From: Candidatus Omnitrophota bacterium
GTDB lineage: Bacteria; Omnitrophota; Gorgyraeia; B26-G9
Length of the DNA: 58,959 bases
Direction: 5' to 3'
Assembly (NCBI GenBank): GCA_018817585.1
Contig: JAHITE010000094.1
Span: forward strand, 1 to 58,959
Below, in pieces: positions 19,701 to 47,439 of the stretch. The notes beneath the pieces were generated by a model. It saw only the letters and a list, made by a program, of their open reading frames with translations, ran no database searches and was not told where the DNA came from. Positions within the stretch are counted from its first letter, which is position 1. Each line of letters starts with the position of its first letter. Made by a program: the position numbers and the translations under genes.

Positions 19701-22700
19701 GAATTTTGCTATTGAAACCGAATATAATGGAGTTTTGTACCGCAAGTATAAAGATGAAGGTAGAGAAGATTTAGCCCACACCAAGGATCTGAGGTTTGAA
19801 ACAAATGAACAGGGGCGGGTAGCAATGCTCTACATTGTTGATGATGTCCGCCGCAGTAAACAAAGCACGGTTGGACTGGCTCTTAGACCTGACGGCAGAA
19901 AAGTATATGAAATTCATCAGGGTAAGGTTGGTAAGGGGGAACTGCTTAAAGGTCAGTTTACGGATAAAGTTAAGCTATATTATGATTTATATGAACTTCC
20001 AGTGGAAACAAAACTATTGTATCCTGATGGTACTGAAAGACTCAAAGAAAAACATTTTGTTGTATTTATTGCAGATAGGATTGCTGAACAATGGGTATTT
20101 GCGCAGAGAGTTGTAGAAACAAGACTAGATGCGTTTCTAAACAAGTTGAATGAATTTGTTAGCGGTAATGAAATTGTACAGCCACAGGGAGAAACCAAAC
20201 AGTTTTATACTCGTTCTTATGCTGAGTCAGAAAAAGAAGCAGAACGTAATGGGGCTTATTTTGAAAACGGTATTGAGATGTATCAGCGCAAAGATAAGTT
20301 TAATCCAGTTGTTTGGCGGGATTATCAGGCCACTGGTGCAGTGGATGCTTTTAAAGAATACCTTGATATACAAATTTTAAAGCATGCTACAAATAACTTA
20401 TTTACTAATGTTTTTGTCGAAGGCCGTGAACGCGGTGTTTTTATGCCATTACTGGTTGTTGTCGGAACAACCACAGTATTGATAACCTTAGGCTTGCCAG
20501 CAGCGCTTTTAGCAGCAAGCTGGTTCTTGTCTTTATTTGTAAAAGTCACTGGCAGAAAACGCAAAGCTTGGAAAGTGCCTGTTGCTGCAAGTGGTGATGG
20601 AACGCCTGATGATGCAGATAAGCCGCCGGTTGAGCCTTCTGTTGTTGTGGCTGGTTCAGGCCCGCGTACTGCGCCTGATGCTACTTTTGTTGGTTCAAAG
20701 AATATTGATTCAAGCATTCGCAACAGAATGTCGATTATGATTCCGCAGATCGGCGTTATAGGGCAATTCACAAAATATATAAGTGATCTTTATGAAGAAG
20801 GCGGATTTTTAGAAGCAGATCCAATTCTCAAAAAGGGCATGGAAGATGCTTTTATTCAGCGGTTTTATCCTGATTGGGATGGCAGAGAAGCAACAAGACC
20901 TCAGAGAACAGAAGAAGTTTGGTCTGGTTACTTGACTCAGTATGGTATTGAGTTAACTGAAATTGAAAAATTAGTTATTGAACCAGTGATGTATATTCTT
21001 TATTATGCAACCTCGCAGGATTCGCGCAGACTAGATAATTGGACCGCTGGTCAAACGCGTACGGGAAAAGGCAATAAATGGGATAAAGCCGATGGAGCTA
21101 TAAACTGGGATACGAAAACTAATCCGTTTGTTAAATTTGGTCATATTTATCAGAAGCAGGAAGAAAAAGAACTAGTAGTTGATTATATTGGTTCCTTATT
21201 GTCTGAACAGAATATTGTACTTACAGACGAAGACAAGGGATTCTTAATTACTAAGCTATTTAATAAAAAAGATTCAAGCATTATTGATCCTAAGAAAATT
21301 AAAACAATATTAGTTGATCGGTTTGGGGCGTTGGATGATTTAACAATTCAAAATATTGTGGATAAGGTTATTGTTCGCTATGGCGGAAGAGAAAAGATGC
21401 TACTTGTTGGTGATAGGGATTTTCGCCGTTATTTTGAATACTGTGAGCAAGACGGAATTGATCCTTTTACCGGAGAAGCCTTAAGACCAGGTGCGATTGC
21501 TAATCAAGAGCTTGATTTTAGAGGGTTTATTCCTGTTGCCAGAAAAATGATTGTAAGCCAATCTGCAGACAGTCAAAAAACTTTTTACGAAAAAGTGAAA
21601 AATAGAGATCAGTATTTGCTTGATCCCATGCGCAAGCTTCTTGCTGAAAAATATAAGCAGGATAATTTTAGGCCATATGAATTTCCTCAGGCTTTTGCTA
21701 AAGGAGATGTAAAGAGAACAATCCTTACCTGGGGACTGGTTCTGGGCGGCATTGCCTTAAGCGGATATTTCCTTTTCGTAGGTGGAATGGCTGCAACAGC
21801 ACTCTGGGTTTTTCCTATATATAGTTTATTTAGCTGGCAGCTGGTTGAGATGATGCCAATGCTCGTGTTTTTCTATCGCCATAAAATGGGCGGATGGATG
21901 ACGGTATTGCGGGCTAAAACAAGAGCGCAGTATGAAGGATTTAAGCCAAGACGTGACATGGCTAATGATCTTCGGGCGCAACTGGGGTTAAGTGTAACTC
22001 AGGCTAAAAAAGCAGTGAATATTCTTACTAAAGGATATTTTAAAAATGATTTTGCAACGCAAGACGAACTTAATGAGTTTATAGCTAAAACAATAAGAAA
22101 ATACAAAAAAGATTTTAGGATTATTGATTTTAATCAAGCAACTTTACTTTCATTTACAAAAAATTTAAATCAAGATAAAACAACAAGAGATAGACTGCAG
22201 GGTAAATATCGATTCTGGACAGTTTTGTTTACTTGTTGGGGTTTAAACTTTGCGCTTCTTTCCGGAGCATCATTATATTATGCAGCCGGAACAATACCTG
22301 CTATAGGTTATGTAATTGGTATTGGTGTGTTATTATTAAATTCCGTTGTTTCTCTGAGAAGCTGGTGGTCATTACTTAATGAGGCAGTTACTTTAAATAT
22401 GGAAAAACAGGGTAAATGGCGTGAATTCTCGTCTTATGAGCAGATAAAACCAATACATTTACAGCAGATTGCAGTGGATCCTTATTTAAAAGATGTTTTT
22501 AATACTGTATTAGTTGATGAAACATTGCTTCATTACACTCTTATTACAGAACAAGAAGTACAGCTGTTAAAAGATGCCTTGGTAAATGGCACTGCGCTTC
22601 CTAAGCTTGAGAACCCTCGTGCCCAAAGAAAAGTTATAGAATTCTTTAATAAAATAAATTTATATAGTGCTGATGAGTTTGAAGAGATGAAGGAATTTAT

Positions 22701-25700
22701 GCTCAAGAATCCAGACAAGCTACTTAAAGTTATTACTAAAAATACAGGTATGGGACAACTGGGTACTCCTTTGCGTTCAGGTTTTGATGATAAAAAAACG
22801 GCTCAGATTAAAACTCCTTTTAGAACAGTAAAAGATACTTTTACCGGAGATTGGATTATTTATTTAAAATCACTGGCACGCAATCTTGACGCTGTTCAGC
22901 AAAAAGAATTTGTTACTAAGTTGAAAAATCCATTGCTTACATACGAACAGACTCTTAGTATTATGCTCAATGAGTACGGGATATTACCGCTTGGGTATAA
23001 TGCAGAAGGCATGCCTTTTACTACTTTGATGACACAAGCTGTTTTTGAGGCTAAGTCAAAACAGGAAATGTTGAACGAGTTAAACCGTGAATTGAATCAT
23101 ATCGCAATTCCTGATCTTACTTTTCTTATGAAACACTTAGGAATTTCTTTGGATCCTGCAATAGCAAAGCCAAAATTAGCTGATTATAAAAATACTCTTA
23201 ATAAACACTTTTCTGCTATGAGTGATTCTGATCTAGAGAACTTGTTGAAAGAGTTGATGCTTAACAGACAAATAATTCATCAATTTATGATTTATCGTGT
23301 TGATAGTTATCAAAAAACTGTTCGGACTGCTCATCATGCTTCTATTGTAGGATATAAAGTATTTTTAAAACATGCTCTTGACCTTGATCATGAACCAACG
23401 GAAGCAGAGATAGTAAAGTATTTCAGGTCTATTTTTAGCTATATGAAAGTTTTAATGGGAAATGGAAGGTCTCATGGCGACATTATGTGGGAAGATCTAA
23501 AGGAACTTGGATGGGAAAGTGCATCTTACACAGATGGCAAACCAGATCACCATTTAAAATCTTGGGCTGATTTTGACAGCAGTCCTGAGGCTAATATTCA
23601 GCAATCGAATTGGGGTTTTAAAGTTGATAATTGGACAATGGCTCTAAGGTATGTTGATGATCCGGACGCGGTAATTTTTAATACTGACTGGGAGCATACA
23701 ATATTCCCCACAGACGCATTCTTATTGCCGTTTGTTGCCTATGAATTTACCAAACGCGAAGATCTGGGATTATTACTTACTGATTTACGGCAGGCTGATG
23801 AAGGCATGACTCCTACAGCTAAAGATCAGACAATGGCTGAAGATGTCTGGAATATTCGCATTATTCCTGCTGAGACTCGTTTTGGAACACCGGCAATGTA
23901 TGGACCGCTTATAATTCGTTTGCCTGCGATGCGTGACTTTGGGACTCCTGCAAGTAAAATAGAAGATACTTATACCGGACAGGAAGTCTTAAAATCAGGT
24001 TATAAATCTGATTTTACTCCGGCGATTAGTATGGGTAGAGGTAGAGAAAAGACTCAAGCTGGTATGCCTGGGTTTGTAAACAGGTTTGGCGGTCTTACAT
24101 TAGAGAATACATTGTCAACGCACTATCAGCAATTTTTAAAGAGTAAGTTTGTTCATTGGACTGAAAAATTAACCTTAATGTTTAATGATGATCACTATGT
24201 AAACCAGGTTCTGATTCCTCGCTATAACTTGACAATATTCCTGTTTGCGTTTTTTGTATCGTTTACTCCTTTTGCGTTTTTAGCAATACCATTGTTTTTT
24301 GTTTGCGCGCAATATATATTTGCGCAGGCAATAACTGCTGGCGGTGTTAGGAAAATGACAAAAGAATTTGGAGTCTGGAAAGGATATGGATTGTATTTAC
24401 AGCGTTTTTGGAGTCTGGTATTTACTTTTCTATCTTTGATATCAAATGATGCTCAAAAAACATCAGATGCTTTAGGCGGAAATAGCGGAGTTTTTGTTGG
24501 CGGGATGAAAGATGTTAAACATCCTTCAGACCGTTTTGGTTCTGTAGGAGATGATAAATCTATATATGGTAAGTTTAGAGAATCAACTAAATGGGGAGTT
24601 ATTTTAGCAGGAATTCTTTTGGTCGCGCCTTTACATCCATGGGGTGTTGCTGCTCAGTATTTTTTCTATGTTTTGCCATTTGCATTTATCTGGGGGCCAT
24701 TTTTGCATAATGCATTATATGGCAGAGACTCATTCAGAGGTAAGGTGCAATGGGATTATTTTAAGACAAAAAAGGCAGCATTTGATAATTTAAAAGGAAA
24801 GAGAAAATTTGGAGATTATGTTGACATGATCTTTGCTTTGCCTGTATTGAATCTTGCTCCAGTCACCGGATTTTTCTATGGGCTTATATCTATACCTTAT
24901 TTTATATTTGTAGACATTTTATGGGTTAATATCTTTAATCGTTTTATAATCAATCCTGCCGGAAAATTATTCAGAAATCTTAACTTTAAAACTATTACAG
25001 CTAAAACTTTCGGCATTACAGGTATTTCTATACAGTACAAAGATTTGACAGAAAGCTTTGTAAATGATCTGGAACTTAGATTTAATATATCAGGGGCAAG
25101 TGATAGTCGTTTTTCGCCGAATGGCAACCGCGCAGAAAGACTGGCTCAGATATTTAATGAAGCAATGCTTTATTTAGAAAGCACAGTTGTTCAAGATACA
25201 GTATTGAATGATTATTTGCAAGATTTACTGGTTAAGCAGGATAATCGTGCTCCTCCGATGGTTGTAAGAGTGAACAGCGCATTGCCGGTAAATGCTGCGC
25301 GCTATTATAATCCAAAACAAGGATGTGTAGAAATAATTCTTAATGAATTATTTACGCGTGAGTTGATTGCCGCATATGATGTTTATCCTCAGGCAGTGCT
25401 TACAATCATTGCTGAAAGATTATTCCATGAATTAGCGCACAATAATACTGTGGGTACAGATGCCCAAGAAAGAGAAGAGACAAAACAGATTCTTTTAAGA
25501 GATATTGCTCTGCATCAGCTGGTTATTAAATCAGGTAATCAAGCATTTGTTGATGATTATTTTGCTAATTCAAATCCTACATTTAAATCAGGTTATTATT
25601 TTAAAGCAGTTATCCAGGATCAGCTTATTCCGGTTTTAAATGATACAGCTGAATTTGATAAGCGGGTTAAGGCTTATCTGGATAATACTCTGCATCAAAT

Positions 25701-28700: not shown

Positions 28701-30546
28701 TGCTTTTATTTCTCCGTTTACCGGATACGAGATATCAGTAAGAGCTGGGAATACCAGATGGATAAATGATACATTTACTCATTCAGATGAAAAACGTTTA
28801 GCTTATGAAGAATTAGCATATATTATTTCCCAAAATAAAGGTGAAGTTGATTTAACCATAGATATTGATCTGCAAAAGCAGATAATAAACGCGGTGTATA
28901 AGGAATTAAGTGTAATTTATGTTACTTCAGAGGTTCTTCCTTTTTCTAAATCTGGTGGATTAGCAGAAGTTCTTGGGCAACTACCGCGGGCGATATTAAA
29001 AGAAGGCCATAAACCAGCGGTATTTACTCCGCTGTATAAAACGATTTCTACTAAAGATTTAGAAAAAGTAGATGATTTCGAGATTAATATTGGCAGGGAA
29101 ATCCTGAATACAACTGTTTGGAAAAAGGTGCACAATGGAGTGGAAGTATATTTTATTGATAATAAGTATACAAATTATTTATATGAAGATGATGATCTTA
29201 AAATCGCTTTAATATTGTCAGAAGGGGTGTTGCAGATAATTGATAAAATGGTAAGCAATAAACAACTTAACAGACCTCAGGTTATTAATGCGAATGATTG
29301 GCCTACAGGCTTAATCCCTCTATTCTTACGCACAAAATATAGCGACCATGCTTTATTTAAAGATGTTGTAAGCATCTTTTCAATTCATAATCTTGCTTAT
29401 CAGGGAGGAGAAGCTAATCGGATTCCTTATGAAAGGTTTAAGGAACTGGGCATTTCTGATGAACATTGGTTTGGGGTGATGAACTTTGAAGATACCGGAG
29501 CATTTAATCTGGTTAAAGCAGCTATTCAGCATTCTGATGCGATAGTAACTGTTTCAGAACAATACGCAAAAGAAATCAGAACTAAAGAATTCGGCGAGCG
29601 TATGGAGAATATGCTTGAATTTAGAAAAGATGATCTTTATGGAGTTTTAAATGGTATGGAAATACCTGCGGCGCAGATACTTGACTCAGCTCAAAAACAA
29701 GCAGTCAAAGTCTTATTGCAAAGAGAATTCGGCTTAAAGCAGGATCCCAACGCAATTGTTGTGGCAATGGCAACCCGGGTTACTCAGGAAAAGAATGTTG
29801 ATGGAGCCTTAAATGTGGCTAGAAGAATTTTGTTAGAAAACTCCGAAGTTCAGTTTGTATTTAAAGGCGAAGGGCATAAAGATAATCCATATACTAAACA
29901 AATGCATGAGCAAATGATCGCATTAAACAATGATTTTCCTGGACGAGTTTCTTGTGATGATGAACCAGGTGCTAGACCGAGGCATTCACACATTGCTATA
30001 GCTGGCAGCGATGTTTTGCTTGTCCCTTCGCGTAAAGAACCATGTGGATTAGTGCAGCAGGTTGGTTTATTGCAGGGATCTTTGGTTGTAGTGCATGCTG
30101 TGGGTGGGCTTGCAGATACAGTTAATGAGTTTAATCCCAGGACTGGTCAGGGTAATGGGTTTAGATTTGATAATGTAGATGATGAAAATGATCAGGATTT
30201 TTATCTTGCTGTAAATAGGGCTCTTGCAGTATACCGCAATAAGGATTTAAAAGCTAAAGTTGTGTTTAATGCTCAAACAGAAGACAGAAGCTGGGGAAAA
30301 GCAGCACGTAAATATGCTGAAATTTATATACAGGCATTTTTAAAGAAGAAAAAACAAAACATATCAACTGGAATCACAGAAGCAGAAGCTGAGTTGCCTG
30401 TAGAAGAGACTTTGAAGCCTTTTGCTCCCCAGTCAGACATAATAAAAGATTTGCGCAATCAGATATTGAAAAGTTTGTCAACTGATAGACTGCATGATAG
30501 GGTTGTTCCGGTACAAAGAAATCTATTGCTTGAACAAGCAATATAA
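1786..30546 (+). CDS. Giant multidomain protein (about 9,580-9,605 aa)
   Basis: Continuous open frame 1729..30546 in the supplied track. In-frame ATGs at 1786 (MFSRGN...) and 1804 (MFNSGKKHNIYFRAIS..., AGGGGA at 1795..1800). By analogy with the paralog leaders, 1804 may be the true start. Many independent domain-level motif matches along the frame (listed separately) argue for real coding. Confidence 0.9.
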   Translation: MFSRGNMFNSGKKHNIYFRAISAVIIQAFLLSDIAFAAGGDLRWLNNDNSQSSTLAPGTAIPQGTFRTKFDLILALVSAFEKKDSADLPLGMNYIDPANSIVKFEGKDSDLFIFEANKDNVPLVLKNAADQIRFNGYVIATLPKEVQKIPEDYVEVISEKSFAEKLAALKAQGKDFDPRAALELVKQSILLNGFTGQSETIGAKQYAPWKKNKWDVQKQAIALMTSGVIVRMPTSAGKTFVFNGVSVLRSLANKWNPNALKEVSIVHTEEGLVERDARNAAQVNADFGLTTGYVVSRDGRRIAYFVDVNGNESELPGGEKELYATADIVYLNISNFIFRFLDDNFTARSEADMALNWGKQTYFLAFDEGDVPLDIRAFNPHTISGGASLTGQGLQQISEQTLKMQEIIDQMIQGELLPVSNELCKKNDDSKTVSLTKRGEQWLKAKLNTISAYTDNKDKASVFADQTLWQEFTELALSAYVYYQNGQDYIISDENKVVIIDKDNSGMQMQGMSWSNGLDIAVRLKERRNGLDIEIKPDALNVASMILPVILSNKLGLVSGVTAASATIGEKTADKYGLEFKNLSGLDQVSKRVEQIILSSDKQESMQNAIDALVVMKSDQSATREMADWGIPDNAGAVLVRCDNENQAADFTDQLLQKQAMSERNIVRITQDGKITDAKGAEIANLSLADLDSLLADDNVDNVIIEFVSKNHESVFGGKMLKDKVEALSKNSKVIIVSTNIAGRGVDFKGDRMVVMSLSADASEETDIQLRGRSARDGREGFFFGFWSPEDFNNYKNLVSEQLAYLNSKVRVGKPHTFIMSNDSKAADRSQKIITAIRKSINDNKQTMEQQQKAFGEFLWQEADAKGKNQGFAREHVMYRRSIVTQGLNSLGIPQHIIQSIREKIAQAVENKITFFLQPEEFVNEILSKEFGLSDIDARTIKQSLESGDYDIAQAVFSVIETVLKNRALEIVDQQWTRFLSESEWNKHRLEKISTRSGYEKQFIKPQMIYAEIKRITANIFERTKTVTQEELGKNVIALAFQLAGKDPTSEEMDQAQAAADKINTLSLGQRIKLLTLRIGPAAIAISANIALAVLIGVIFKALSIGGVGSAVGLPVIGSAISLFLSLGPVALAAITIGAVMIGFALNSQVKRLSQVDSSIAKMADAIAIGHRQSLKDIGKTVGLTAWRKTLTVTATFAPFVAAMTLFSYIGSAAFIAGTIGNTVLLASVVLGVVGIISSGLLLFTSRKDLKSAPLMPMTSAKRFFRGGIFGSLVTLGTYAFAFVSSGTFGVPVIIGIVGVGASMLIAKNIFALSSDNIAVKGWITPLGFLAGIAAAAAIVLGIVPLLGVQVIDSIRIAMSTGVMPGGGVLQVVGFLVTALFSLQGIMFFKSQYSTGQKIAKQEVGFDGKAKKSKQTIFTFLAMGRASALQSRMVMITTGSIMGLAVTVGVLILGVKLIAMLPLIALFTVGTFISKVIIRKISTKPTDYSALAKRKVKNFAGIQSQLNTVGLNQFSENIGLIINQFKQEVGNSQNPTSLAYSKLNGMIEKDKLLQTFLIALQSSSPNDGSFFSKAEIKHMIAKIPMEDLNSQQRAAFTKAIIALLVELNLAKVGVNRLFNIAVNPEKLTKALQISVMPFMGATMLASVPTMAAASISQNAQSPYETAKADLPQNTPEIAAYYANLAEQARNERLIEIPDIEQEQALNQFVSKFRIPVLTEYQTNLACEFGAIRENGIRTHKGFDFLVQAGTNIYPTMPGRVVFAGQGTGYGNLVVVEHEVENGISGRIDYFYTLYGHNQSNLVKTGDYVGVNEPIAKAGVTGHASSPDGGCVHFEIKQAEKKINDYYQYIALTALDPEAVLGKDLHLMADISKRNEPILVASIDPSMPLFSLAKNKEPKVIGQAPPPPAKEQVNVSKPAPYSSFAGIIGKKIVLNQLIKGNSWAQAAQKLFGNPHLWATLRDIYARQHPDENVVGTLIINIANGATLEITEELAALLSPEFKATIDPRNAEQIIQPTVHQTVLPIVPEAGSQVTARVWKHTVEPGDCLSKIAQDLLGSHRLWPNFREIYNQQNPNKKIIGTLIFASDTLTLNITDEVAALMTPAARENLNLKPAASGPPPAIAKLTASDTPAAIANPVSNNDDQDQDSFAIRDQVAARAKELMASRAAELAKKKNAETEKIYYSDPAKPTPARNYERGLANAIIKILTNAAEGGHFAVAENPALSDELKTAGNLYFYHKGSEQEIGARDGSLQKLIDADRASNTAKNVADIEIWIGSKYLKDTKGNILRDKRNNPILNELAKPYIPLIDNKPLVYDSLSQLSDVQNLLHFYKFPTQLENRDSFGRGQELTSPSEIRDYQAKGFPLDIWIEGKDVGGQYSYRLNFGTVAANMTLDDVNDYARARVLQLEVVGKILSNLDRESQQQMINDANTKGITPFGAAAIPNIAGKLPENPMMKENPYIGAIVAQRGSNPFEVKTYLQSDNLNQNYIEVYNAQKHISKAERLEKIDKNTNFDNVYYFSKDSAGKLLQRKMHFLSYNRQGKLVEVNARSAHDVIVLETEGAKGDWANCDILWFGKNATNKEILNVSIGTLMHQIAVENAKKTEKQLKRRMVLETALIPLNVMGGFGVGGIIGQLSQPGAQAGIRLIYDSLFTAWEMPTGAKIMGPPSKDTVETFISSYLFFNQGPGKNRPAEQKGLEFITKEDKAGNLTVTDKEFAAYLEKQKKDKKSDLNLWLTMAMDDQASIGFVNYVQGQRKFAIAMFSAGILDNLARLNTESFNAPGNAFRNILASRYFSLTGEVNVLAVIGAIAGNDVLGAGANFGAFKEGWGNFWENYVNFFGVTVDAKAVINSLSTLFTKDKVFEYSPELPKKRAFGLYFLGFPIMTYFDLKNTQGFINSSNSFAFEMESSSNLFDKKWWRDKVTEYTEEDFQKLKLVPLGKVKAEGEKGQPVWRVYYINADTGGIVFLGEKGYASKLKRLEDDVKLFDQFMSLIGEGGGRIEKKSYDAGAVVEANITQPQATKAGERIPDLNQQMLSFSWNTRHSLTNISPSHIYDTKATTNSLNWAFTYDIALQSITLAAGGMPDESDALLNYLTEHKWLYRQGEKDDFNGGVYNSVDLAQISSATQKPIAEFRNNAGNSNWVAAALIKGALQHLKQRFPEPSLNPWQLVLVDQKEEVDQGREDFRKNGDIDKVFAGRGETQWGFLGLRTTKLAAVDQAMNDQEKAYIERAKNIAVSLLALQDKDGGIRHGPTELNIKSTEENINAFGLFSMLYDLTGENKYKDAAKKILEWLPKVYDKQTGVFHRGITDEIVDKIYTTDANALAIIVIGPEILNKLKDRNGYVFDPNGKTAEKIMGLKDNKGTITASEVTVKYKGNDVLGYDYTNADGRANRGAVVSPEMTAHVAKAHKVMFRYYANDPAKQTYHADKAKTLLDNMEKIALRTDLGISFPNSTVPENIKQGEQINRYYDERKKESGQAASDFYTPSLASLNSLWIILADKDVDPFDVRNEKPLAERSAVNGFKGFDQSIINLKERILDLQKQKRTDAKWSKENEQILIAAIDQINQKMQLYTKGMIIPAGQEYNQDILTIIALKAKQTKGIKLNPKEAADLKASESRHPYYQGWDKLSMLSEKRFVINQIKEIKKLESPAKDQKLKELIDKVIKAYYGNGLKSEQQIAVMIEKFAQLLKNSESVEMAAFELVDMLYGQDKLISEDIFKGVYQYLSAEDNSIVTVTLIAPAEAIKAAREKRQEEQTIAAKQYELLEKGGVIITDKSTGRLLEIRAGEGIDVLGQFLDKIKNMVAAEEIDVAAMQKIMKDRWVFTIPANSSEALSVNGKKQDVTVTLVFPYASEYVREEENLRTGEKEVRVFKYGLLDRVITKDKITVMQYNNIEVDVSGTVYENITRRLDKDAPYKPENILLISETAVYDTVFDVEKVSGAVSPVVIKKVLDPDSKAVKYEVYKDYELPVMTFSEKYVTLIEFDKWGREKSSTTYKNTGSIDNPRWNPEKPVLSSEVLPLIGLKDSEGNPVYWDENSKWSSKLVFDHERNKHFIEVRDQNGNLIKKYDGTMSENTQAKPQPLQVIPEQKDQQFEIDARDAQGRAFKVEKETSFYFEYLDEFKTLGVNAAEMNRLGLKGSAMVGDTYLYTIDANGVGSRQKNAEGKELEPVGRSVAQVQRPNEKGISKYFDNKGNVLLQMYAPKQKLVWQQVIDNQGRKVTEYYGYMVDRNNKRVANVQESDLSKLKFIRDKVSYSIYSVDQLNDLKALNIGIYNQLKAEIKKLNIDIESEQFKKDLNAQGKIDLALLGVTCAYDPDTNKPVELMAFSSVEKNADNKFIINGGDVLVISKDMQKKDVSQQVIDGAGRVKIKYDGKFDSLNKRFIREKVTYFYYEYQNRFESYNISAGLAEEMKILGLFGVAMVGETFTYDDNTKQQSAQPIAYSFLRAFENKSYVDEKGNILVQMMNANQHMSRQDLINNQGQTIKRYLGKLINAETKEFERAQASYFFYSTQQLEEFKEQNPDFYKQLVKEYKKVGVDIEAESFKAELNRNGKIGIAIIGATYLYDQNLNKEIKLMSVSRIVKNKQGGYIDEQGNVLVEMKDLINNLHWQELIDSTGRIQVKFDGVVKAGQFVRNQRTYYFYDYASFFAYRQAHPELKVELDAWEAKLPQLGKVNAKEVMDELGRRNIALFGFTFLYDQETDKDTEALAFSFLNVQQNQGNKVEDYFSKAGEISVQNVRFKQQLTWEEIKDNFGRPVKVYDYEKGKDNKYYPNKVTKYHYVYNDTFSKLGITKEVMNQLGRAGFAMVGETYLLKKGTKIEQEKPGSVSVMKPHKNLKGTQLSDYFNNKGEMIVELDNKRDLRVWQEVRDAHGRVTYSYDGEIIDGKFVILNVTRFDYDYSDALFNTVAEKMEKEWIKLGLNKEQKRAELKEAMSRLSKYYMAAVGSTYLYDAENGNEYGINPDNLTDFSILEKFNLNEYGNRDQFKVDLLNNVDIKFLNNVVKKLGINIDAKVIDGLGKAIRKAAQGYVDEKSFITIDSLIEDLNTLKTEFNLKGLNDADLRSIFIELFKNTDYINDDGYVKAMIYNIRNRLLWMGIKDNKGKIQYKYDGYLTKPGQFEWVWVTKVNYYWPEEIENLGAIGIAYNSNTHFYQERIDMDSFASELAAVYFSSKDIKTDIEKLIKVTVKNSKQSDAVLAAIDKISLKGKDEIALNKALRDLLREIIKQTAAPFNIDLGLSANFNIDKLVFEFGNITANSNKDNLMPKIEKFLRENVLDKEYREKLLFVIQQILQDPAMQNKTAKQYQEALLMSIMKSREFAVVTESQIVPFKQKEGKDIYIDEAGNVIFHMFQVRRQLDYQEVKDNRGSIVILFDGKINKDKLAQPLTKHRSEAFERDIMSFSYFENRVLNSMSISNRGEAFFFDEQDLMAKRLANLPVRNIQLSVFEYTQKLRGQEAKDMESIVSLSGGQRKLAEKLSKVVQIEVVKLEQDVQFITPATLAKRIYAQKEKYELNGFTLNSLTKLCSELFGQRFSESWLIPYEEQKGSDLDVFISKDKEGNVLGDIHYQAKERWHSSIFDLDDPRDKVKAIDNDAIQKAFADYRIRLEKAGVEDFSQIIKQIGGEQKLSENFRPLLLESLLKLQKEKAQVSLEYIISTMDGLKGDFGLSALTNTDITILTSSLCTTSANVYYQKEKDNLGRVVKHTWGYVDNTGQFNGTMQFRSQYQTEYGKFGVADITTSFLVEANWTLFNYSKAVNLDQRSGAVDYAVIKTMLPNERGEYFAGELEKKFEDSWYIFRIPLPKTDMIEFFQAGPFNLKYDAAKSVVEDLIGKYRTGRFLTQEDLIYFLTPSLEKNGVDINNSDIKEILISKLFKGMDSKSATIFVDRKSIDDEKQRPNILQMWMEVKNNRGHLDLMFSGYLNMYDEQGVLIKEKRQSLDVGTIEFGKTFVNFLHYNKKRNIGISKGSTLFRFDPNFAIETEYNGVLYRKYKDEGREDLAHTKDLRFETNEQGRVAMLYIVDDVRRSKQSTVGLALRPDGRKVYEIHQGKVGKGELLKGQFTDKVKLYYDLYELPVETKLLYPDGTERLKEKHFVVFIADRIAEQWVFAQRVVETRLDAFLNKLNEFVSGNEIVQPQGETKQFYTRSYAESEKEAERNGAYFENGIEMYQRKDKFNPVVWRDYQATGAVDAFKEYLDIQILKHATNNLFTNVFVEGRERGVFMPLLVVVGTTTVLITLGLPAALLAASWFLSLFVKVTGRKRKAWKVPVAASGDGTPDDADKPPVEPSVVVAGSGPRTAPDATFVGSKNIDSSIRNRMSIMIPQIGVIGQFTKYISDLYEEGGFLEADPILKKGMEDAFIQRFYPDWDGREATRPQRTEEVWSGYLTQYGIELTEIEKLVIEPVMYILYYATSQDSRRLDNWTAGQTRTGKGNKWDKADGAINWDTKTNPFVKFGHIYQKQEEKELVVDYIGSLLSEQNIVLTDEDKGFLITKLFNKKDSSIIDPKKIKTILVDRFGALDDLTIQNIVDKVIVRYGGREKMLLVGDRDFRRYFEYCEQDGIDPFTGEALRPGAIANQELDFRGFIPVARKMIVSQSADSQKTFYEKVKNRDQYLLDPMRKLLAEKYKQDNFRPYEFPQAFAKGDVKRTILTWGLVLGGIALSGYFLFVGGMAATALWVFPIYSLFSWQLVEMMPMLVFFYRHKMGGWMTVLRAKTRAQYEGFKPRRDMANDLRAQLGLSVTQAKKAVNILTKGYFKNDFATQDELNEFIAKTIRKYKKDFRIIDFNQATLLSFTKNLNQDKTTRDRLQGKYRFWTVLFTCWGLNFALLSGASLYYAAGTIPAIGYVIGIGVLLLNSVVSLRSWWSLLNEAVTLNMEKQGKWREFSSYEQIKPIHLQQIAVDPYLKDVFNTVLVDETLLHYTLITEQEVQLLKDALVNGTALPKLENPRAQRKVIEFFNKINLYSADEFEEMKEFMLKNPDKLLKVITKNTGMGQLGTPLRSGFDDKKTAQIKTPFRTVKDTFTGDWIIYLKSLARNLDAVQQKEFVTKLKNPLLTYEQTLSIMLNEYGILPLGYNAEGMPFTTLMTQAVFEAKSKQEMLNELNRELNHIAIPDLTFLMKHLGISLDPAIAKPKLADYKNTLNKHFSAMSDSDLENLLKELMLNRQIIHQFMIYRVDSYQKTVRTAHHASIVGYKVFLKHALDLDHEPTEAEIVKYFRSIFSYMKVLMGNGRSHGDIMWEDLKELGWESASYTDGKPDHHLKSWADFDSSPEANIQQSNWGFKVDNWTMALRYVDDPDAVIFNTDWEHTIFPTDAFLLPFVAYEFTKREDLGLLLTDLRQADEGMTPTAKDQTMAEDVWNIRIIPAETRFGTPAMYGPLIIRLPAMRDFGTPASKIEDTYTGQEVLKSGYKSDFTPAISMGRGREKTQAGMPGFVNRFGGLTLENTLSTHYQQFLKSKFVHWTEKLTLMFNDDHYVNQVLIPRYNLTIFLFAFFVSFTPFAFLAIPLFFVCAQYIFAQAITAGGVRKMTKEFGVWKGYGLYLQRFWSLVFTFLSLISNDAQKTSDALGGNSGVFVGGMKDVKHPSDRFGSVGDDKSIYGKFRESTKWGVILAGILLVAPLHPWGVAAQYFFYVLPFAFIWGPFLHNALYGRDSFRGKVQWDYFKTKKAAFDNLKGKRKFGDYVDMIFALPVLNLAPVTGFFYGLISIPYFIFVDILWVNIFNRFIINPAGKLFRNLNFKTITAKTFGITGISIQYKDLTESFVNDLELRFNISGASDSRFSPNGNRAERLAQIFNEAMLYLESTVVQDTVLNDYLQDLLVKQDNRAPPMVVRVNSALPVNAARYYNPKQGCVEIILNELFTRELIAAYDVYPQAVLTIIAERLFHELAHNNTVGTDAQEREETKQILLRDIALHQLVIKSGNQAFVDDYFANSNPTFKSGYYFKAVIQDQLIPVLNDTAEFDKRVKAYLDNTLHQIHSEPLKGMADQNIIINSPEKLAQAYDINWESTTAMVKAGKAPAAPLKNFKHEKSDVSIIVSAPDFPQAMRDALSNIAEELKGIFKGLAITDNEMIHATIFVLGDNYPITPDMANKISDILKDIGPLKIRVKGLNMSSNGNIFAQCYVEDEKFYKLLKKLDWGFPDETRGSRILHISLARISEGISSDEFKQLYDKVAQLRNFDFGQVVIKTPELIEVLDRWGFAVGRSYTFFVDDLLSDNLQTGRALKDEYITKLDGLRQSGSIKPADKSQLNFEMTEKQQQLYLQAIKEVLAERKEETITPAILFEAADRATKDYKSTLKARVCLQPGTMNPLHYGQITASLAGILGQVSEEDKDKEVLTLLANGGTVPDKPYAASAKIRNEMAKQAIKDPDLEEWLEVTPIRGQVVNMFMSDPYALEKTGKNRAARRFNMDMAGFIWLFASNPEVDWIYLVGSDKVAGYGKKNEKGLIVDTLSKARVKVVYFSRTGEEIDYERDIEPYEWMNALEKQGFFVKSEVSSFADLSATKIRKALISGADNVDNIPLAASVPQQVIDYIKPNSLAGRTLIFLYDLENREKQADEQVTAGILQRALFAYEQAIKDIEKEQQKNDIAADILAKLHDKISEKVEKLKANILIQNQNALMIESDIFINDLNELSEKYFNKPKLTKDKYDTARAMAYEVNRRLSSRDGIKAFGRNHRQGLNPEVIDLEYDRYNRVLEGVIQILNRHEYPNVFVNSWGYDPVIRERNLAKLNEQFTKLFFVNIVKGMRKILARTGFIANASPAARIIINDLRILKEDEIEKMTARELADNIIKPLIDTPVGLSIFEDMQEKFMLYSAAPGTGKGALIENTFNPVKKGVGYPGLVNKLMLYHTRDPHNENTGRLSEKDGLAYHFRTQAELETLERQGRIETAWVNKQLQGLASKDFEETVVLNKEDINIQDSRQTLLDSDLIIEERENQYIVKRKIRGSQAVFDGNKPVVLEGGYGWFLSLKDRYPDITVAFISPFTGYEISVRAGNTRWINDTFTHSDEKRLAYEELAYIISQNKGEVDLTIDIDLQKQIINAVYKELSVIYVTSEVLPFSKSGGLAEVLGQLPRAILKEGHKPAVFTPLYKTISTKDLEKVDDFEINIGREILNTTVWKKVHNGVEVYFIDNKYTNYLYEDDDLKIALILSEGVLQIIDKMVSNKQLNRPQVINANDWPTGLIPLFLRTKYSDHALFKDVVSIFSIHNLAYQGGEANRIPYERFKELGISDEHWFGVMNFEDTGAFNLVKAAIQHSDAIVTVSEQYAKEIRTKEFGERMENMLEFRKDDLYGVLNGMEIPAAQILDSAQKQAVKVLLQREFGLKQDPNAIVVAMATRVTQEKNVDGALNVARRILLENSEVQFVFKGEGHKDNPYTKQMHEQMIALNNDFPGRVSCDDEPGARPRHSHIAIAGSDVLLVPSRKEPCGLVQQVGLLQGSLVVVHAVGGLADTVNEFNPRTGQGNGFRFDNVDDENDQDFYLAVNRALAVYRNKDLKAKVVFNAQTEDRSWGKAARKYAEIYIQAFLKKKKQNISTGITEAEAELPVEETLKPFAPQSDIIKDLRNQILKSLSTDRLHDRVVPVQRNLLLEQAI
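1837..1905 (+). other. Conserved Sec-type leader / signal-anchor of the giant protein
   Basis: FRAISAVIIQAFLLSDIAFAAGG follows the basic stretch KKHNIY. Same motif at 31099..31161, 35699..35764 and 38279..38344. AxA-like cleavage context (AFA|AG). Confidence 0.7.
2390..4160 (+). other. SecA-like DEAD-motor ATPase domain (within giant ORF)
   Basis: WDVQKQAIALMTSGVIVRMPTSAGKTF (Walker A, nt 2479..2505). YFLAFDEGDVPLDIRAFNPHTISGG (compare SecA [22 protein letters not shown]). QDYIISDENKVVIIDKDNSGMQMQGMSWSNGLDIAV (compare [34 protein letters not shown]). VSTNIAGRGVDF (compare IATNMAGRGTDI). IQLRGRSARDGREGFFFGFWSPED (compare [24 protein letters not shown]). E. coli SecA motifs recalled from memory. 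Confidence 0.8.
4980..6230 (+). other. Polytopic membrane block (roughly a dozen hydrophobic helices)
   Basis: Long run of G/A/I/L/V-rich 20-aa segments separated by short basic loops (LRIGPAAIAISANIALAVLIGVIF ... MLPLIALFTVGTFISKVIIRK). Confidence 0.65.
6955..7300 (+). other. Peptidase M23 (LytM-type) domain
   Basis: HKGFD (HxxxD, nt 7000..7014). GTNIYPTMPGRVVFAG, YGNLVVVEH, TLYGHNQSNLVKTGDYV. The terminal HxH motif reads CVHFE (Cys codon 7273..7275). Confidence 0.75.
7570..8070 (+). other. Two tandem LysM-like repeats
   Basis: HTVEPGDCLSKIAQDLLGSHRLWPNFREIYNQQNPNKKIIGTLIFASDTLTLNITDEVAALMTP and a more degenerate upstream copy NQLIKGNSWAQAAQKLFGNPHLWATLRDIYARQHPDENVVGTLIINIANGATLEITEELAALLSP. 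A Pro-rich linker precedes them. Confidence 0.5.
10890..12310 (+). other. (alpha/alpha) toroid domain with QW-like motif, homologous to the C-terminus of ORF 47440..49386
   Basis: NWAFTYDIALQS vs DVGFTYDQALSA. LLALQDKDGGIRHGP...TEENINAFGLF...YKDAAKKILEWL...FHRGITDE...TDANALAIIVIGPE vs LLELQNRNKDGSLPGGP...TEQNIAAYMFF...YALAARKVYKWL...FNRGTDDR...TDTVALSIMAFGPQ. Confidence 0.55.
13700..19950 (+). repeat. Array of at least 10 divergent 120-150-aa protein repeat modules (protein-level only)
   Basis: Recurrent anchor D.(K/Q)GN(V/I)L(V/L).M.......L.WQ(E/Q)(V/I).D..GR....(Y/F)DG. Examples: WQQVIDNQGRKVTEYYG, SQQVIDGAGRVKIKYDG, WQELIDSTGRIQVKFDG, WEEIKDNFGRPVKVYDY, WQEVRDAHGRVTYSYDG, WMGIKDNKGKIQYKYDG, YQEVKDNRGSIVILFDG. 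Each is followed by (V/T)(T/S)YF(Y/F)Y.Y, a helical stretch, and A(M/I)(V/I)G(E/D/A)T(Y/F)(L/T)YD. Confidence 0.7.
21700..24970 (+). other. GT48 (FKS / callose synthase)-like beta-1,3-glucan synthase module flanked by TM clusters
   Basis: Core at nt 23959..24117 IEDTYTGQEVLKSGYKSDFTPAISMGRGREKTQAGMPGFVNRFGGLTLENTLS. It aligns without gaps to the yeast Fks1 segment [53 protein letters not shown] (recalled from memory), matching at ED.Y.G, G, G.GR(D/E), F, G, E, LS. Upstream VIFNTDWEH...VAYEF vs IQLIDANQDNY...LAEF. Downstream LGGNSGVFVGG and FAFIWGPFLHN vs IGGARYISTGRGF and FAPFVFNPHQF. TM clusters at about 21715..22380 and 24215..24960, as in FKS topology. Confidence 0.55.
25860..26400 (+). 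other. 2H phosphoesterase (LigT / cyclic phosphodiesterase-like) domain
   Basis: Two H-x-(T/S)-x motifs 78 residues apart: MIHATIFVLG (His codon 25987) and ILHISLARI (His codon 26221). Confidence 0.5.
26520..27380 (+). other. NadD-like (HxGH-family) nucleotidyltransferase module, giant-protein copy
   Basis: LQPGTMNPLHYGQI (HxGH motif with the last His replaced by Gln, codon 26713..26715). LLANGGTVPDKPYAAS, RRFNMDMAGFIWLF, YLVGSDKVAGYGKKNEKG. SSFADLSATKIRKAL (ISSTxIR-like). Confidence 0.65.
27600..28900 (+). other. Guanylate-kinase-like module (tail segment followed by P-loop head)
   Basis: Tail 27628..27995: ESDIFINDLNEL...YEVNRRL...YDRYNRVLEGVIQIL...WGYDP...FTKLFF. Head 28198..28800: LYSAAPGTGKGALIENTF, LMLYHTRDPH...SEKDGLAYHFRTQAELETLERQGRIETAWVNKQLQGLA, VVLEGGYGWFLSLKDRYPDITVAFISPF. 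Confidence 0.55.
28905..30345 (+). other. GT5 glycogen/starch synthase (GlgA-like) domain at the C-terminus of the giant protein
   Basis: VIYVTSEVLPFSKSGGLAEVLGQLPRAILKEGHKPAVFTPLY (KxGGL motif at nt 28948..28962). INANDWPTGLIPLFL. VPSRKEPCGLVQQVGLLQGSLVVVHAVGGLADTV (compare PSRFEPCGL...GGLxDTV). Confidence 0.8.
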
Positions 30547-31065: not shown

Positions 31066-34000
31066 ATGTATAATAATAAACATAGCAAACATGTGTGGTT
31101 TAAAGCAATCTCATTGATTCTGATTCAGTCATTTTTGTTTACTAATATTGGTTTTGCCGCGGAAAATCTGATTACATCTGTGGATAATAGCTATCTTGCA
31201 CCGACTATAAATATTCAAAATGGAGCAATTTCTTCTACCTTTAATAATGTTTTAAATGATAACGATATTACTAATGCCAATAATGTAAGTCATATTGAGC
31301 CATTAAAAACCGGTTTTGAGACAAAAAACCATTATATATCCGAGCTTAATCGCTTAAAATCCAAGAAATATATTAATAAGTTTACTGATGCTGAGCGGGA
31401 AGATTTAAGAATTGAGCTTACTTCTGAGCGTAAGGCAGCTTATTTGGCCGCGATTCGGGAAGTTTTAAAAGAAAAGAATGTAAAAGTTATTACTCCGGAA
31501 ATTTTGTTTGAAGCAGCAAAAAGGGCAACTAAAAATGATCATTCTACGGTAAAAGCGCGGGTGAATTTACAGCCAGGAACAATGAATCCTTTGCATTATG
31601 GGCATTTAACCGCTTCTTCAGCCGGGATTATCGGCCGGGTTACAACTGCGGATAAAAATAAACAAGTAAAAGTTATGACTCTGCTTGCCAACGGCGGGAC
31701 TGTTCCGGACAAACCTTTTGCCGCGAAAGCTGAGACTCGTAATGAAATGGCCAGAAAAGCAATAGAAAATTCAGACATGCATGATTGGACTGAAGTTACT
31801 CCGATTCGCGGTCAGGCAGTTGACATGTTTCTATCTTCCCGGGAAAATTTAGTTTTAGCCGGAAAAAATGAAAGCAGTAGACGGTTTAATATGGATATGG
31901 CTTCATTTATCTGGTTATTTGTGGCTAATCCCAATGTTGAATGGGTATATCTTGTTGGTTCTGACAAAGTCGCCGGATACGGTAAAAAGAATGAAAAAGG
32001 TTTATTGGTTGACACTTTAAGCCGCCCGGAAGCGCATGCTAGTGTGGTTTATTTTGGCCGAAAAGGCGAAGAAATAGATTATGAAAATGATATTAAAAAA
32101 TATGATTGGCTGGATAAACTATGGAAAGCTGGATTTTTTAAGCTGTCCACTGTGTCTAGTTTTGCTGATTTATCAGCAACTAAAGTAAGAACCGCACTGG
32201 TAAACGGCGATGAGCAGATTGACGGTATCTCTTTAAGTGAAACCATGCCTACCAGTGTGTCGGAGTATATAAGAGATAATCGGGAATTAATGTATTTATA
32301 TCCCTTAGAAATGCAGGAGAAAAAAGCTAATAAGCTGGTCTCTTCTAATAAGTTAGCTGAAGGTTTAAAAGAATACGCCAAAACCTCGCAAATGGTTAAA
32401 GATGAAATTGCTAAAGATGCTATTGATCGCGCTGTAGATTTAGGAACACTTAATACTTTGTATTTAATGGTACTGGCCAATGAAATCAGAGCTTTGGCAT
32501 CTGTAGGTGCTTTGAAAGAAATTTCTCAGATATTCTTAATCTATTCCGCCGCGCCAGGTACAGGCAAAGGTGAGTTAATGGATAATACCTTTGAAAAAGG
32601 AAAAGGCAAGTTTGCTGATATTATTGGTAAGATTATTCTGTATCATACCCGTAACCCAAGAGTTAAAAAAGGTGCTTCTGAAAAAGACGGGTTAAAGTAT
32701 CACTTCCGCACTCAAGCACAGCTAAAAGACTTAGAGGCTAAAGGCAAAATTGTTACTGCTTTGGTTAATCGCCAGTTACAGGGTTTAGCAATTGAAGATT
32801 TTGTGGAAAATGGGGTTATGGTCCAAGGGGTTAATAATGCTGATCTTTTGCAAAAAGACGATATTATCAAGCAGATAAAATCAGACAATGTAGGTAATAT
32901 TCAGCAGATTATTGTTGAAAGAGCAGGTAAAACCGAAAAAATTAGCGGTGTTAGTATTGCTCTTGATTCAATGTATGGTCTGAATGAGGGAGATACGGTA
33001 ACTGATGTAAAAAATAATGCGGTTATTGTTGACCGGCAAGTAAAAGGCATGTCTTCTGTATTTGCTCAAGGCGAGCCAGTGGTTTTAGAAGGCGGATATG
33101 GCTGGTTTAATGCCTTGGTTAATCAAAATCCTGAAATAGTTAGCATGTTTATTGCTCCATTTGCGGATAAAGATATTCAACAAAGAGAAGCAAATACTGC
33201 CTGGATTAATCAGAACTTTTCTAAAACATCAGAAAGATTAATTGCTTACCAGGTAATACAGACTTTAATTGAAAAAAATTTAGGCGAGATAAGTCTTACT
33301 CTAGCTAATGATCAGTCTAAACAGTGGCAGTCTGTTATTAAAAGAGCAGTGGAAGATCAGAGAATAGCTAATTTTAATGCTGAGCTTCTTGACTCGGAAG
33401 CATTTGTTCAGGATTTAAATGATCTGCTAAAATTATTCTCTAAAGATCCGATTAATAAAGATCAGGAGAATCTAGTTCGTTCTTTAGGCTATGAAGTTAA
33501 TCGCCGTATAATATCTCGTGAAGGTCAGATTCGTTATAGTCGCGGAAAACGGCCGGCATTTGCCGAAGGTGAAACTGATCTGCAATTTGACCGCTATAAT
33601 CGGGTATTAGAAGGGGTTGTTCAAATTCTGCATCGCGATGATTATCAGAAGAATAGGCAATTTGGTAAAAAAATTATTAACCCTTGGGGCTATACAGAAG
33701 ATAGCAAAAAGCAAATTATCAGCACTCTTACCAGTGATTTTACCAGATTCTTTTTTGAAAGTATTTTAACTGGAATCAGGATTCAGCTTGCTACTAAAGG
33801 TCATCAGCTTAATGCTCCGCCTGCTGATATTGACCGGAAATCTATTGAAGCTGGAGAAGCTGAGATTGATCAGATTCTTAAATACAGCGATCAGGATATA
33901 AAGGGGCTATCAATAGAAGAGCTGGCAGCTCATGTAACTGCGCTTACTAATACAGGTACTTTGGCCAGAGTGCCGGATTTATCGCAAATATTTTTAATTT

Positions 34001-35568: not shown

Positions 35569-35671
35569 TTTATGTATTTTTTATAAAGGACTTTATGAAA
35601 AGATTACACGGATTAATTTTAACATGCAAACACGTAAACGCGCTAATGCGCTAACTTGAAGGGTGTGTATT

Positions 35672-47368: not shown

Positions 47369-47439
47369 TTTGTGGCAGGTTAAGCTTTATGCTAAAATAA
47401 TTCAAACTGATAATTCAAAGCAACGGAAAATATTTGCCT

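Follow-up and report, generated by a model that had tools for sequence, protein, structure and literature searches.

Enzymes of glycosyltransferase (GT) family 48 synthesise plant callose and build the wall of fungal cells, and echinocandin antifungals are directed against them. In reviews (including PMC12715860), the Fks proteins of this family are likened only to bacterial synthases of family GT2. For Fks1, K1082 and N1085 are described as binding uridine diphosphate (UDP)-glucose, D1102 as the aspartate at the DxD position and D1222 as the catalytic base (PMC12715860). Here, a stretch of 58,959 nucleotides (nt) from Candidatus Omnitrophota bacterium (assembly GCA_018817585.1, contig JAHITE010000094.1, positions 1 to 58,959 of the forward strand), termed the window, was analysed. 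One giant open reading frame (ORF) in it carries a module of about 850 residues that an initial annotation, made from the letters alone, had likened to eukaryotic GT48 glucan synthases. The module is a very divergent but real relative of Fks1 and callose synthase; it is GT48-like and not a member passing the family threshold. GT48 is supported as the closest family by three independent routes, namely intermediate profiles, the ranking of PDB sequences and the predicted structure, and in this form the proposed GT48-like identity is upheld.

Homology of the module to Fks1

A hydropathy scan gave transmembrane hairpins at amino acids (aa) 6665-6700 and ~6852-6876, a soluble stretch of ~600 aa and a transmembrane cluster at aa 7494-7736, and thus bore out the earlier statement that a soluble region lies between two transmembrane clusters, as in FKS. 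The giant ORF and the parts of the module are as follows, with the source of each assignment in brackets.

nt 1729-30546, + strand: giant ORF, 9,605 aa, the single ORF carrying the FKS-like module (ORF list)
nt 21721-22356, + strand: upstream transmembrane hairpins with soluble linker, aa 6665-6700 and about 6830-6876 (hydropathy)
nt 22411-24198, + strand: GT-A glycosyltransferase domain of FKS/GT48 type with helical N-terminal half, aa 6895-7490 (model, Foldseek, profile A6, see below)
nt 23959-24117, + strand: 53-residue motif IEDTYTGQ...ENTLS, aa 7411-7463 (ORF translation; hidden Markov model (HMM) alignments to Fks1 1221-1275)
nt 24199-24963, + strand: C-terminal membrane domain of about 6-8 helices, putative glycan channel, aa 7491-7745 (hydropathy; model; profile match to Fks1 1376-1494; multiple sequence alignment)

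The GT-A domain is soluble and presumably cytoplasmic. Its helical half holds an insertion of ~100 aa (aa 7080-7180, nt about 22966-23268), which is shared by the window protein and P0001-P0003 and, by sequence comparison, absent from the other subfamily members. A candidate pairing of MPFTTLMTQAVFE (about aa 7105) with the Fks1 strand MPTFTVLTPHYAE was rejected, as this stretch falls in the lineage-specific insertion that other members lack. The upstream hairpins may correspond to the transmembrane helices preceding the Fks1 GT domain; their equivalence to Fks1 TM5-6 is not established, because the AlphaFold predicted local distance difference test (pLDDT) was only 30-50 there. Separately, several relatives (P0001, P0020, P0021, P0032, P0033) were seen to have aa 6230-6890 (nt about 20416-22400), which consist of transmembrane helices and soluble linkers, and the N-terminal half of the module conserved together as one unit; AlphaFold confidence was poor for this upstream region and no family match was obtained for it.

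The 53-residue peptide on which the initial annotation was built was found exactly at residues 7411-7463. For local comparisons, the verified Fks1 sequence 717-1540 was used. The Fks1 segment quoted in the initial annotation corresponds to Fks1 1220-1272 of the solved chain 7xe4 and was correct at 52 of 53 residues, the true sequence reading GFGTILNF and not GFGSILNF. Aligned gap-free, as had been stated, the two segments share 13 of 53 residues and score 41 with BLOSUM62. Among all ungapped 53-residue comparisons of the ORF with Fks1, the highest score is 43, which exceeds 100 of 100 shuffles (maximum 42), but the pairwise match by itself is marginal, because the full Smith-Waterman comparison with Fks1 gave a z-value of just 2.2, its score being attained in 12 of 300 shuffles.

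When 1.84 billion representative proteins were searched exhaustively with phmmer, 54 relatives of the segment were obtained, with a conserved core at aa 7290-7665. This search was essential, because a word-indexed homologue search returned nothing with the single sequence and two short fragments only with alignment A1, which comprises 28 family members. Against PDB sequences, the A1 profile ranked Fks1 first (E = 6e-20, 74.6 bits), followed by Fks2 and then BcsA (E = 5e-11, 45 bits); the match to Fks1 consisted of three collinear stretches (1078-1124, 1143-1276 and 1376-1494). Profile A6 was built from the family without P0043 and P0053, which pass the Pfam cut-off, and without P0051, which is inferred to pass it, its own score not having been itemised. 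Fks1 still came first (E = 5e-13, 51 bits; BcsA E = 2e-6, 29 bits), now as a single stretch 747-1275 covering nearly the whole GT domain including the helical N-terminal half; the BcsA match was confined to the GT-A core. A further profile ("dist"), from which the window and its close kin were left out, comprised 17 distant relatives and matched Fks1 at E = 1e-32 and the window ORF at E = 8.7e-75 over aa 7182-7665. With hhalign, the close subfamily was aligned to the distant group (probability 100%, E = 3.7e-64, 479 columns) and the distant group to Fks1 (probability 99.6%, E = 3.2e-24, 453 columns). The N-terminal half on its own (aa 6880-7300 against Fks1 717-1100) gave no significant hhalign match, the best local match pairing FMIYRVDSYQKTV with WASLRSQTLYRTI.

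Structure was predicted twice with AlphaFold. The first model (aa 6650-7760, 15 sequences) had a mean pLDDT of 66.8 and was confident in the soluble domain only; Fks1 and Fks2 were already its top PDB matches. The second (aa 6890-7750, 30 sequences, alignment A5 from whole representative proteins) reached a mean pLDDT of 84.1 and a predicted template modelling score (pTM) of 0.87, with values mostly of 90-98 in the GT domain and 65-90 in the C-terminal helices. It comprises a central beta-sheet with flanking helices, a large helical subdomain and about eight C-terminal helices, and the modelled sheet and helices are consistent with a GT-A fold. Foldseek comparison of the second model with the PDB placed Fks2/Fks1 at ranks 1-3 (E = 6e-9 to 6e-8, query-normalised TM-score (TMq) 0.44-0.45, 926-979 columns). 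BcsA was matched at E = 3.5e-7 (TMq 0.32, about 500 columns), and chitin synthases (TMq about 0.27) and hyaluronan synthases (0.29-0.33) ranked lower. All top matches were membrane-integrated processive synthases, among which Fks spans by far most of the query. Hydropathy, model and Foldseek together show the architecture of GT48: transmembrane helices, a cytosolic-type GT-A domain with a helical half, and a multi-helix membrane domain of the channel type.

The blocks flanking the motif that had been paired with Fks1 in the initial annotation (VIFNTDWEH, AYEF, LGGNSGVFVGG and FAFIWGPFLHN) are all present in the ORF, and each pairing was reproduced by an unbiased MAFFT alignment that included intermediate homologues. 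When all family regions were aligned with Fks1 950-1540, MAFFT yielded a graded series from Fks1 over P0051, then P0043/P0053, then Elusimicrobiota and intermediate sequences, to the window's subfamily. The correspondences, from MAFFT unless noted, are listed below (window first, Fks1 second; + strand).

QKTVRT (about aa 7196): LYRTISG
YFRSIFSYMKV: RKFKFLVSMQRL
K7298-V-D-N7301, nt 23620-23631: UDP-glucose-binding K1082-S-D-N1085
D7320-W-E7322, nt 23686-23694: DAN motif D1102-A-N1104, the DxD position of GT-A enzymes
AYEF: LAEF
AEDVWNIRIIPAETRFG: KEQTFGTLFARTLSQIG, interface helix IF1
YG (about aa 7391): HYGHPD
E7412-D7413, within the 53-residue motif: E1221-D1222 (HMM alignments and MAFFT)
GRGRE 7436-7440, within the 53-residue motif: GKGRD, a conservative match
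R7452, within the 53-residue motif: K1261
ENTLST from E7459, within the 53-residue motif: EQMLSR, the QxxRW position of GT2
LGGNSGVFVGG, within the C-terminal membrane domain: IGGARYISTGRG
WGPFLHN, within the C-terminal membrane domain: FAPFVFNP

The catalytic ED motif of GT48 is therefore present as E7412-D7413. Five columns of A1 are invariant (K7298, D7320, G7392, E7412 and D7413). In a 37-sequence alignment including 28 genomic loci, K7298, D7320 and D7413 did not vary and E7412 hardly did; across this set, which covers about 28 species of two phyla, identity to the window sequence was 17-57%. K7298 is invariant family-wide (alignments A1 and A4), but conservation of N7301 does not extend beyond the window's subfamily. 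Members of the close subfamily read D-x-[D/E/G/T/V]-H at the DxD position; the Fks1-like D-[S/M]-N, which lacks the H, occurs in P0043, P0053 and P0051 alone.

Alternative explanations and predicted function

Several observations weigh against an assignment to GT48. The Pfam model Glucan_synthase (PF02364), proposed at the outset as a check, gave zero matches on aa 6601-7800 even at E ≤ 10, where no other meaningful Pfam match was obtained either, and none on the 491-aa core, the gathering threshold of 37.2 bits not being reached. NCBIfam gave no match for the module, and phmmer against all PDB sequences none for aa 6601-7800. Judged by these direct tests alone, the idea would have been dropped on the refuting condition set in the initial annotation, the lack of a significant GT48 hit. 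The profile of the close subfamily by itself also misses Fks1 (HMMER 3.6 bits; hhalign P = 0.044; PDB search not significant), so that the link to Fks1 needs the more conservative relatives. The GT2 model Glyco_trans_2_3 is matched by 10 of the 28 family members. For the second model, the TM-score to Fks stays below 0.5 and the global root-mean-square deviation is large, and the structure thus supports the same architecture, closest to Fks, and not a tight superposition. As to single residues, the window has DWE where Fks1 has the metal-independent DAN, and the acceptor-side EQxLSR has become ENTLST, with E, L and S kept and Q and R lost. For the first UDP-binding strand of Fks1 (Y849/E851), profile and HMM alignments yielded no convincing equivalent; a weak HMM alignment puts the strand near aa 7000-7010, where the residues are not conserved.

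Fold and catalytic logic are common to GT48 and GT2 synthases, and the module might accordingly be a very divergent GT2 processive synthase of the BcsA, CrdS or Glyco_trans_2_3 type, its likeness to GT48 reflecting the shared cellulose-synthase-like superfamily. The significant BcsA match of the A1 profile, the Glyco_trans_2_3 matches just mentioned, two members matching the GT21 model, the NCBI name of P0043 ("glycosyltransferase family 2 protein") and a D-x-[D/E] nearer to the GT2 DxD than to DAN all fit this explanation. However, Fks1 outranked BcsA in every profile search, and a better GT2 match, which the initial annotation had named as grounds for abandoning the idea, did not arise. Moreover, the Fks1 alignment reaches the helical N-terminal half and the transmembrane region, whereas BcsA matches the GT-A core only, and in Foldseek Fks is clearly ahead in both coverage and TM-score. 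The module has GKGRD-like, KxDN and FNP-like motifs common to GT48; DxE and IED are present, the QxxRW of GT2 is not (ENTLST stands at the equivalent position), and the window segment has no Pfam match to Glycos_transf_2 or Glyco_trans_2_3. A GT2 enzyme is therefore regarded as distinctly improbable. That short motifs of a membrane protein resemble Fks1 by mere chance could be argued from the Smith-Waterman z-value and the empty direct searches; this explanation is refuted by transitive profile evidence many orders of magnitude beyond chance, which is collinear over more than 450 residues and with which the structure agrees independently, and is given practically no weight.

The module could also be a catalytically dead relic, serving only as membrane anchor, scaffold or channel of the giant protein. 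Its extreme sequence divergence and the non-conserved acceptor motif (EQxLSR/QxxRW) and first UDP-binding strand would suit such a fate, and giant proteins evolve fast (bioRxiv 10.1101/2023.11.21.568195). Yet K7298, D7320, E7412 and D7413 are invariant or nearly so at the identities and taxonomic spread given above, and the GT core was modelled at pLDDT above 90, which makes a relic very unlikely. The strict conservation of catalytic residues across two phyla argues for activity. With good though not full confidence, aa about 6895-7745 are thus read as an active, membrane-integrated processive glycosyltransferase of cellulose-synthase-like fold, whose nearest characterised relatives are the eukaryotic GT48 enzymes.

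By analogy with Fks1 and BcsA, a UDP-sugar would be held by the cytoplasmic GT-A domain through K7298/N7301 and D7320. D7413 of the IED motif would act as catalytic base and the sugar would be joined to the non-reducing end of the growing chain, which might then be driven outward through a channel formed by the C-terminal helix bundle, possibly together with the upstream hairpins. The data show homology, fold, architecture and conservation of the catalytic residues; activity, processivity, cytoplasmic orientation and export are inferred. The presence of DWE instead of DAN hints at metal dependence, GT2-like rather than Fks1-like. Beta-1,3-glucan as product is a default guess; donor, linkage and metal dependence are not readable from sequence.

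Distribution of the family, host protein and neighbouring genes

The FKS-like family is found almost only in giant multi-domain proteins of Omnitrophota and Elusimicrobiota. Most of the 54 relatives are very long proteins or fragments thereof, up to 7,525 aa; named sources are metagenome-assembled genomes (MAGs) of Candidatus Omnitrophota (P0002, P0004, P0043, P0053) and Elusimicrobiota (P0039, P0044) and a MAG labelled Cloacimonas (P0001). Among GTDB species representatives, 28 genomes proved to carry the close subfamily; about 19 of these are labelled Omnitrophota and six Planctomycetia/Planctomycetales, the rest carrying the labels "uncultured bacterium", Nitrospirae or Dehalococcoidales. 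Individually, 11 of the 28 family members match Pfam Glucan_synthase (best E = 3e-35). Two NCBI proteins from Omnitrophota score above the gathering threshold of PF02364, P0043 with 42.9 bits and P0053 with 50.5 bits, and P0055 is a 7,518-aa JGI protein with a precomputed PF02364 match. Of the relatives found, P0051 resembles Fks1 most closely (pairwise E = 6e-23), with the motifs GKPMNQN, TDMN, HYGHPDFF, NEDIFGG and GVEQAMSR; it is the cluster representative for the following gene. Conservative members are named "hypothetical" or "glycosyltransferase family 2" in the databases.

L029, JGI metagenome 3300045006, contig Ga0438302_0001967, gene 351-22907: 7,518 aa, precomputed Pfam Glucan_synthase match

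The initial annotation had called GT48 overwhelmingly eukaryotic, and the literature searched regards it as a fungal and plant family with GT2 synthases as the sole bacterial analogues. Full-text searches returned no publication in which GT48 or PF02364 is connected with Omnitrophota or Elusimicrobia, and none on a bacterial GT48. Term searches of two Omnitrophota giant-gene preprints (bioRxiv 10.1101/2023.11.21.568195 and a 2026 Omnitrophota preprint) gave no "GT48" and no glucan-synthase context for "glucan", and the 2026 preprint gave no "callose". GT48 in bacteria is undescribed and not absent from the data, because public databases already contain bacterial proteins above the Pfam threshold that have drawn no comment. 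What appears to be undescribed is not the enzyme type, which is known, but its bacterial branch, the motif variants of that branch and its occurrence within giant proteins. This novelty is tempered by the public PF02364-passing proteins, and the function of the module is a prediction from sequence. 

The family forms a gradient, with members passing as Pfam GT48 at one end and window-type forms unrecognised by any database model at the other. It offers an outgroup for tracing the route and the donor by which Fks/callose synthase came to eukaryotes, and supplies natural variants of DAN and EQxLSR, motifs to which metal independence and the handling of the acceptor are ascribed. To ~850 residues of the largely unannotated Omnitrophota giants, so far discussed mainly as degradative or adhesive machines, a role in polysaccharide synthesis and export may thereby be assigned. 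A bolder and rather doubtful proposal is that eukaryotic GT48 has its prokaryotic sister or source lineage in the FKS-like modules of Omnitrophota/Elusimicrobiota giants, which would bridge GT2 cellulose-synthase-like enzymes and Fks/callose synthases and make an exported beta-glucan for the cell-cell interface of ultra-small host-dependent bacteria; if true, it would disclose the origin of the eukaryotic beta-1,3-glucan synthase.

Apart from the module, Pfam recognised SecA_DEAD, SecA_PP_bind, Helicase_C, Peptidase_M23, a weak GH76 (glycoside hydrolase (GH) family 76) and C-terminal GT5 and GT1 domains in the giant ORF.

nt 2272-4119, + strand: divergent SecA_DEAD, SecA_PP_bind and Helicase_C, aa 182-797, N-terminal start of the giant protein (Pfam)
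nt about 5005-6228, + strand: block of ~10 transmembrane helices, aa 1093-1500, after the SecA-type module (hydropathy)
nt 6997-7314, + strand: Peptidase_M23, aa 1757-1862 (Pfam, E = 7e-19)
nt 11395-11706, + strand: weak GH76 (alpha-1,6-mannanase family), aa 3223-3326 (Pfam, 26.4 bits)
within nt 28912-30180, + strand: GT5 starch/glycogen-synthase domain, aa 9062-9297 (Pfam Glyco_transf_5, E = 2.6e-59)
within nt 28912-30180, + strand: GT1 domain, aa 9338-9484 (Pfam Glycos_transf_1, E = 6.8e-11)

Because the GT5/GT1 pair shares the polypeptide with the FKS-like module, two distinct glucan-synthase-type modules are fused in the giant protein, the GT5/GT1 pair being a second one that depends on nucleotide sugars, and P0004 likewise combines GT5/GT1 with an FKS-like module. 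Searched with the profile of 17 distant relatives, the window holds one copy of the FKS-like module and no second one. A GH76-like segment was also observed beside the FKS-like module in the giants P0028, P0035 and P0044 (7,525 aa, Elusimicrobiota).

Downstream of the giant gene, the following genes were annotated.

nt 31066-35340 and 35663-38212: two large ORFs, 1,424 and 849 aa, just after the giant gene
nt 39206-40648: MFS_2 sugar transporter, beside the clan GH-A ORFs
nt 40740-42632 and 44231-45505: two ORFs, clan GH-A TIM-barrel glycosidases, Glyco_hydro_2_C the stronger match, GH72 weak and just above the cut-off
nt 47434-49386: 650-aa protein with N-terminal PilZ (cyclic di-GMP-binding) domain and no other recognised domain

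A scan around the giant gene for a glucan-related operon gave only the generic GH-A glycosidases, the MFS transporter and the PilZ protein; this neighbourhood fits glycan metabolism and is suggestive, not diagnostic. GH72 is a fungal beta-1,3-glucanosyltransferase family, and PilZ regulates BcsA-type synthases; by analogy, a regulatory link from the PilZ protein to the FKS-like module is conceivable. GT48, GH72 and GH76 all serve in assembling the cell wall of fungi, a parallel that could be coincidental. The 1,424- and 849-aa ORFs showed weak, sub-threshold matches to NadD-like nucleotidyltransferase and guanylate kinase, and HEAT repeats.

Comparison with known systems

The host ORF is an "Archaeovorin-like" giant protein of Omnitrophota. 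Like the Archaeovorin-type giants (bioRxiv 10.1101/2023.11.21.568195), it has divergent SecA_DEAD/SecA_PP_bind domains, many transmembrane helices, GT5 and GT1, and peptidase and glycoside-hydrolase domains. It shares their Omnitrophota origin, and the nearest relatives of its FKS-like module sit in Omnitrophota MAGs. The size class is different, the described examples exceeding 30,000 aa as against 9,605 aa here. A SecA-type module with a transmembrane block is known from such giants and has been proposed to aid their own export (West-Roberts et al. 2023, bioRxiv 10.1101/2023.11.21.568195).

The databases also hold uncharacterised PF02364-positive proteins of bacteria, for example Omnitrophota MFA5373983.1 and HDZ76813.1 and the 7,518-aa JGI giant. 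They belong to the family of the module, which is likewise embedded in very long proteins there, and were reached by phmmer from the window at E = 6e-7 to 6e-5 (whole library). In these members D-[S/M]-N, HYGHPD/FYGH and GKGRE are kept and the Pfam cut-off is exceeded, whereas the window's subfamily does not pass and is far more diverged (17-20% identity).

With BcsA and the GT2 processive synthases (CrdS, chitin and hyaluronan synthases), the module shares the superfamily fold, the D...D...ED logic and, probably, the principle of coupled synthesis and translocation. The profile matches to BcsA are significant but weaker than those to Fks1, and GT2 synthases reach a Foldseek TMq of 0.27-0.33. 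Unlike these enzymes, the module has no QxxRW, no GT2 Pfam match and no fused PilZ domain, and its helical half-domain and transmembrane region align with Fks and not with BcsA.

Fks1/Fks2 and the callose synthases (CAZy GT48, PF02364; 7xe4, 8jzn, 9wzs) are the best profile and structural match. Differences are the score below the Pfam threshold, DWE for DAN, ENTLST for EQMLSR and fewer C-terminal transmembrane helices; no N-terminal accessory (AC) domain of the Fks type was identified for the module, no dedicated test having been made, and regulation by Rho1 is not expected in the bacterium. The eukaryotic enzymes stand alone at ~1,900 aa, whereas here one module of a 9,605-aa bacterial protein is concerned. 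Common to both is the layout of transmembrane helices, a GT-A domain of ~600 aa, cytosolic in Fks, and a multi-helix channel domain. So is the order of the motifs: QxTxRT, KxDN, the aspartate at the DxD position, the amphipathic AEDxWN helix (Fks1 IF1), YG, ED, G[KR]GR[DE], [KR] at Fks1 K1261, a glycine-rich transmembrane loop and PFxxN.

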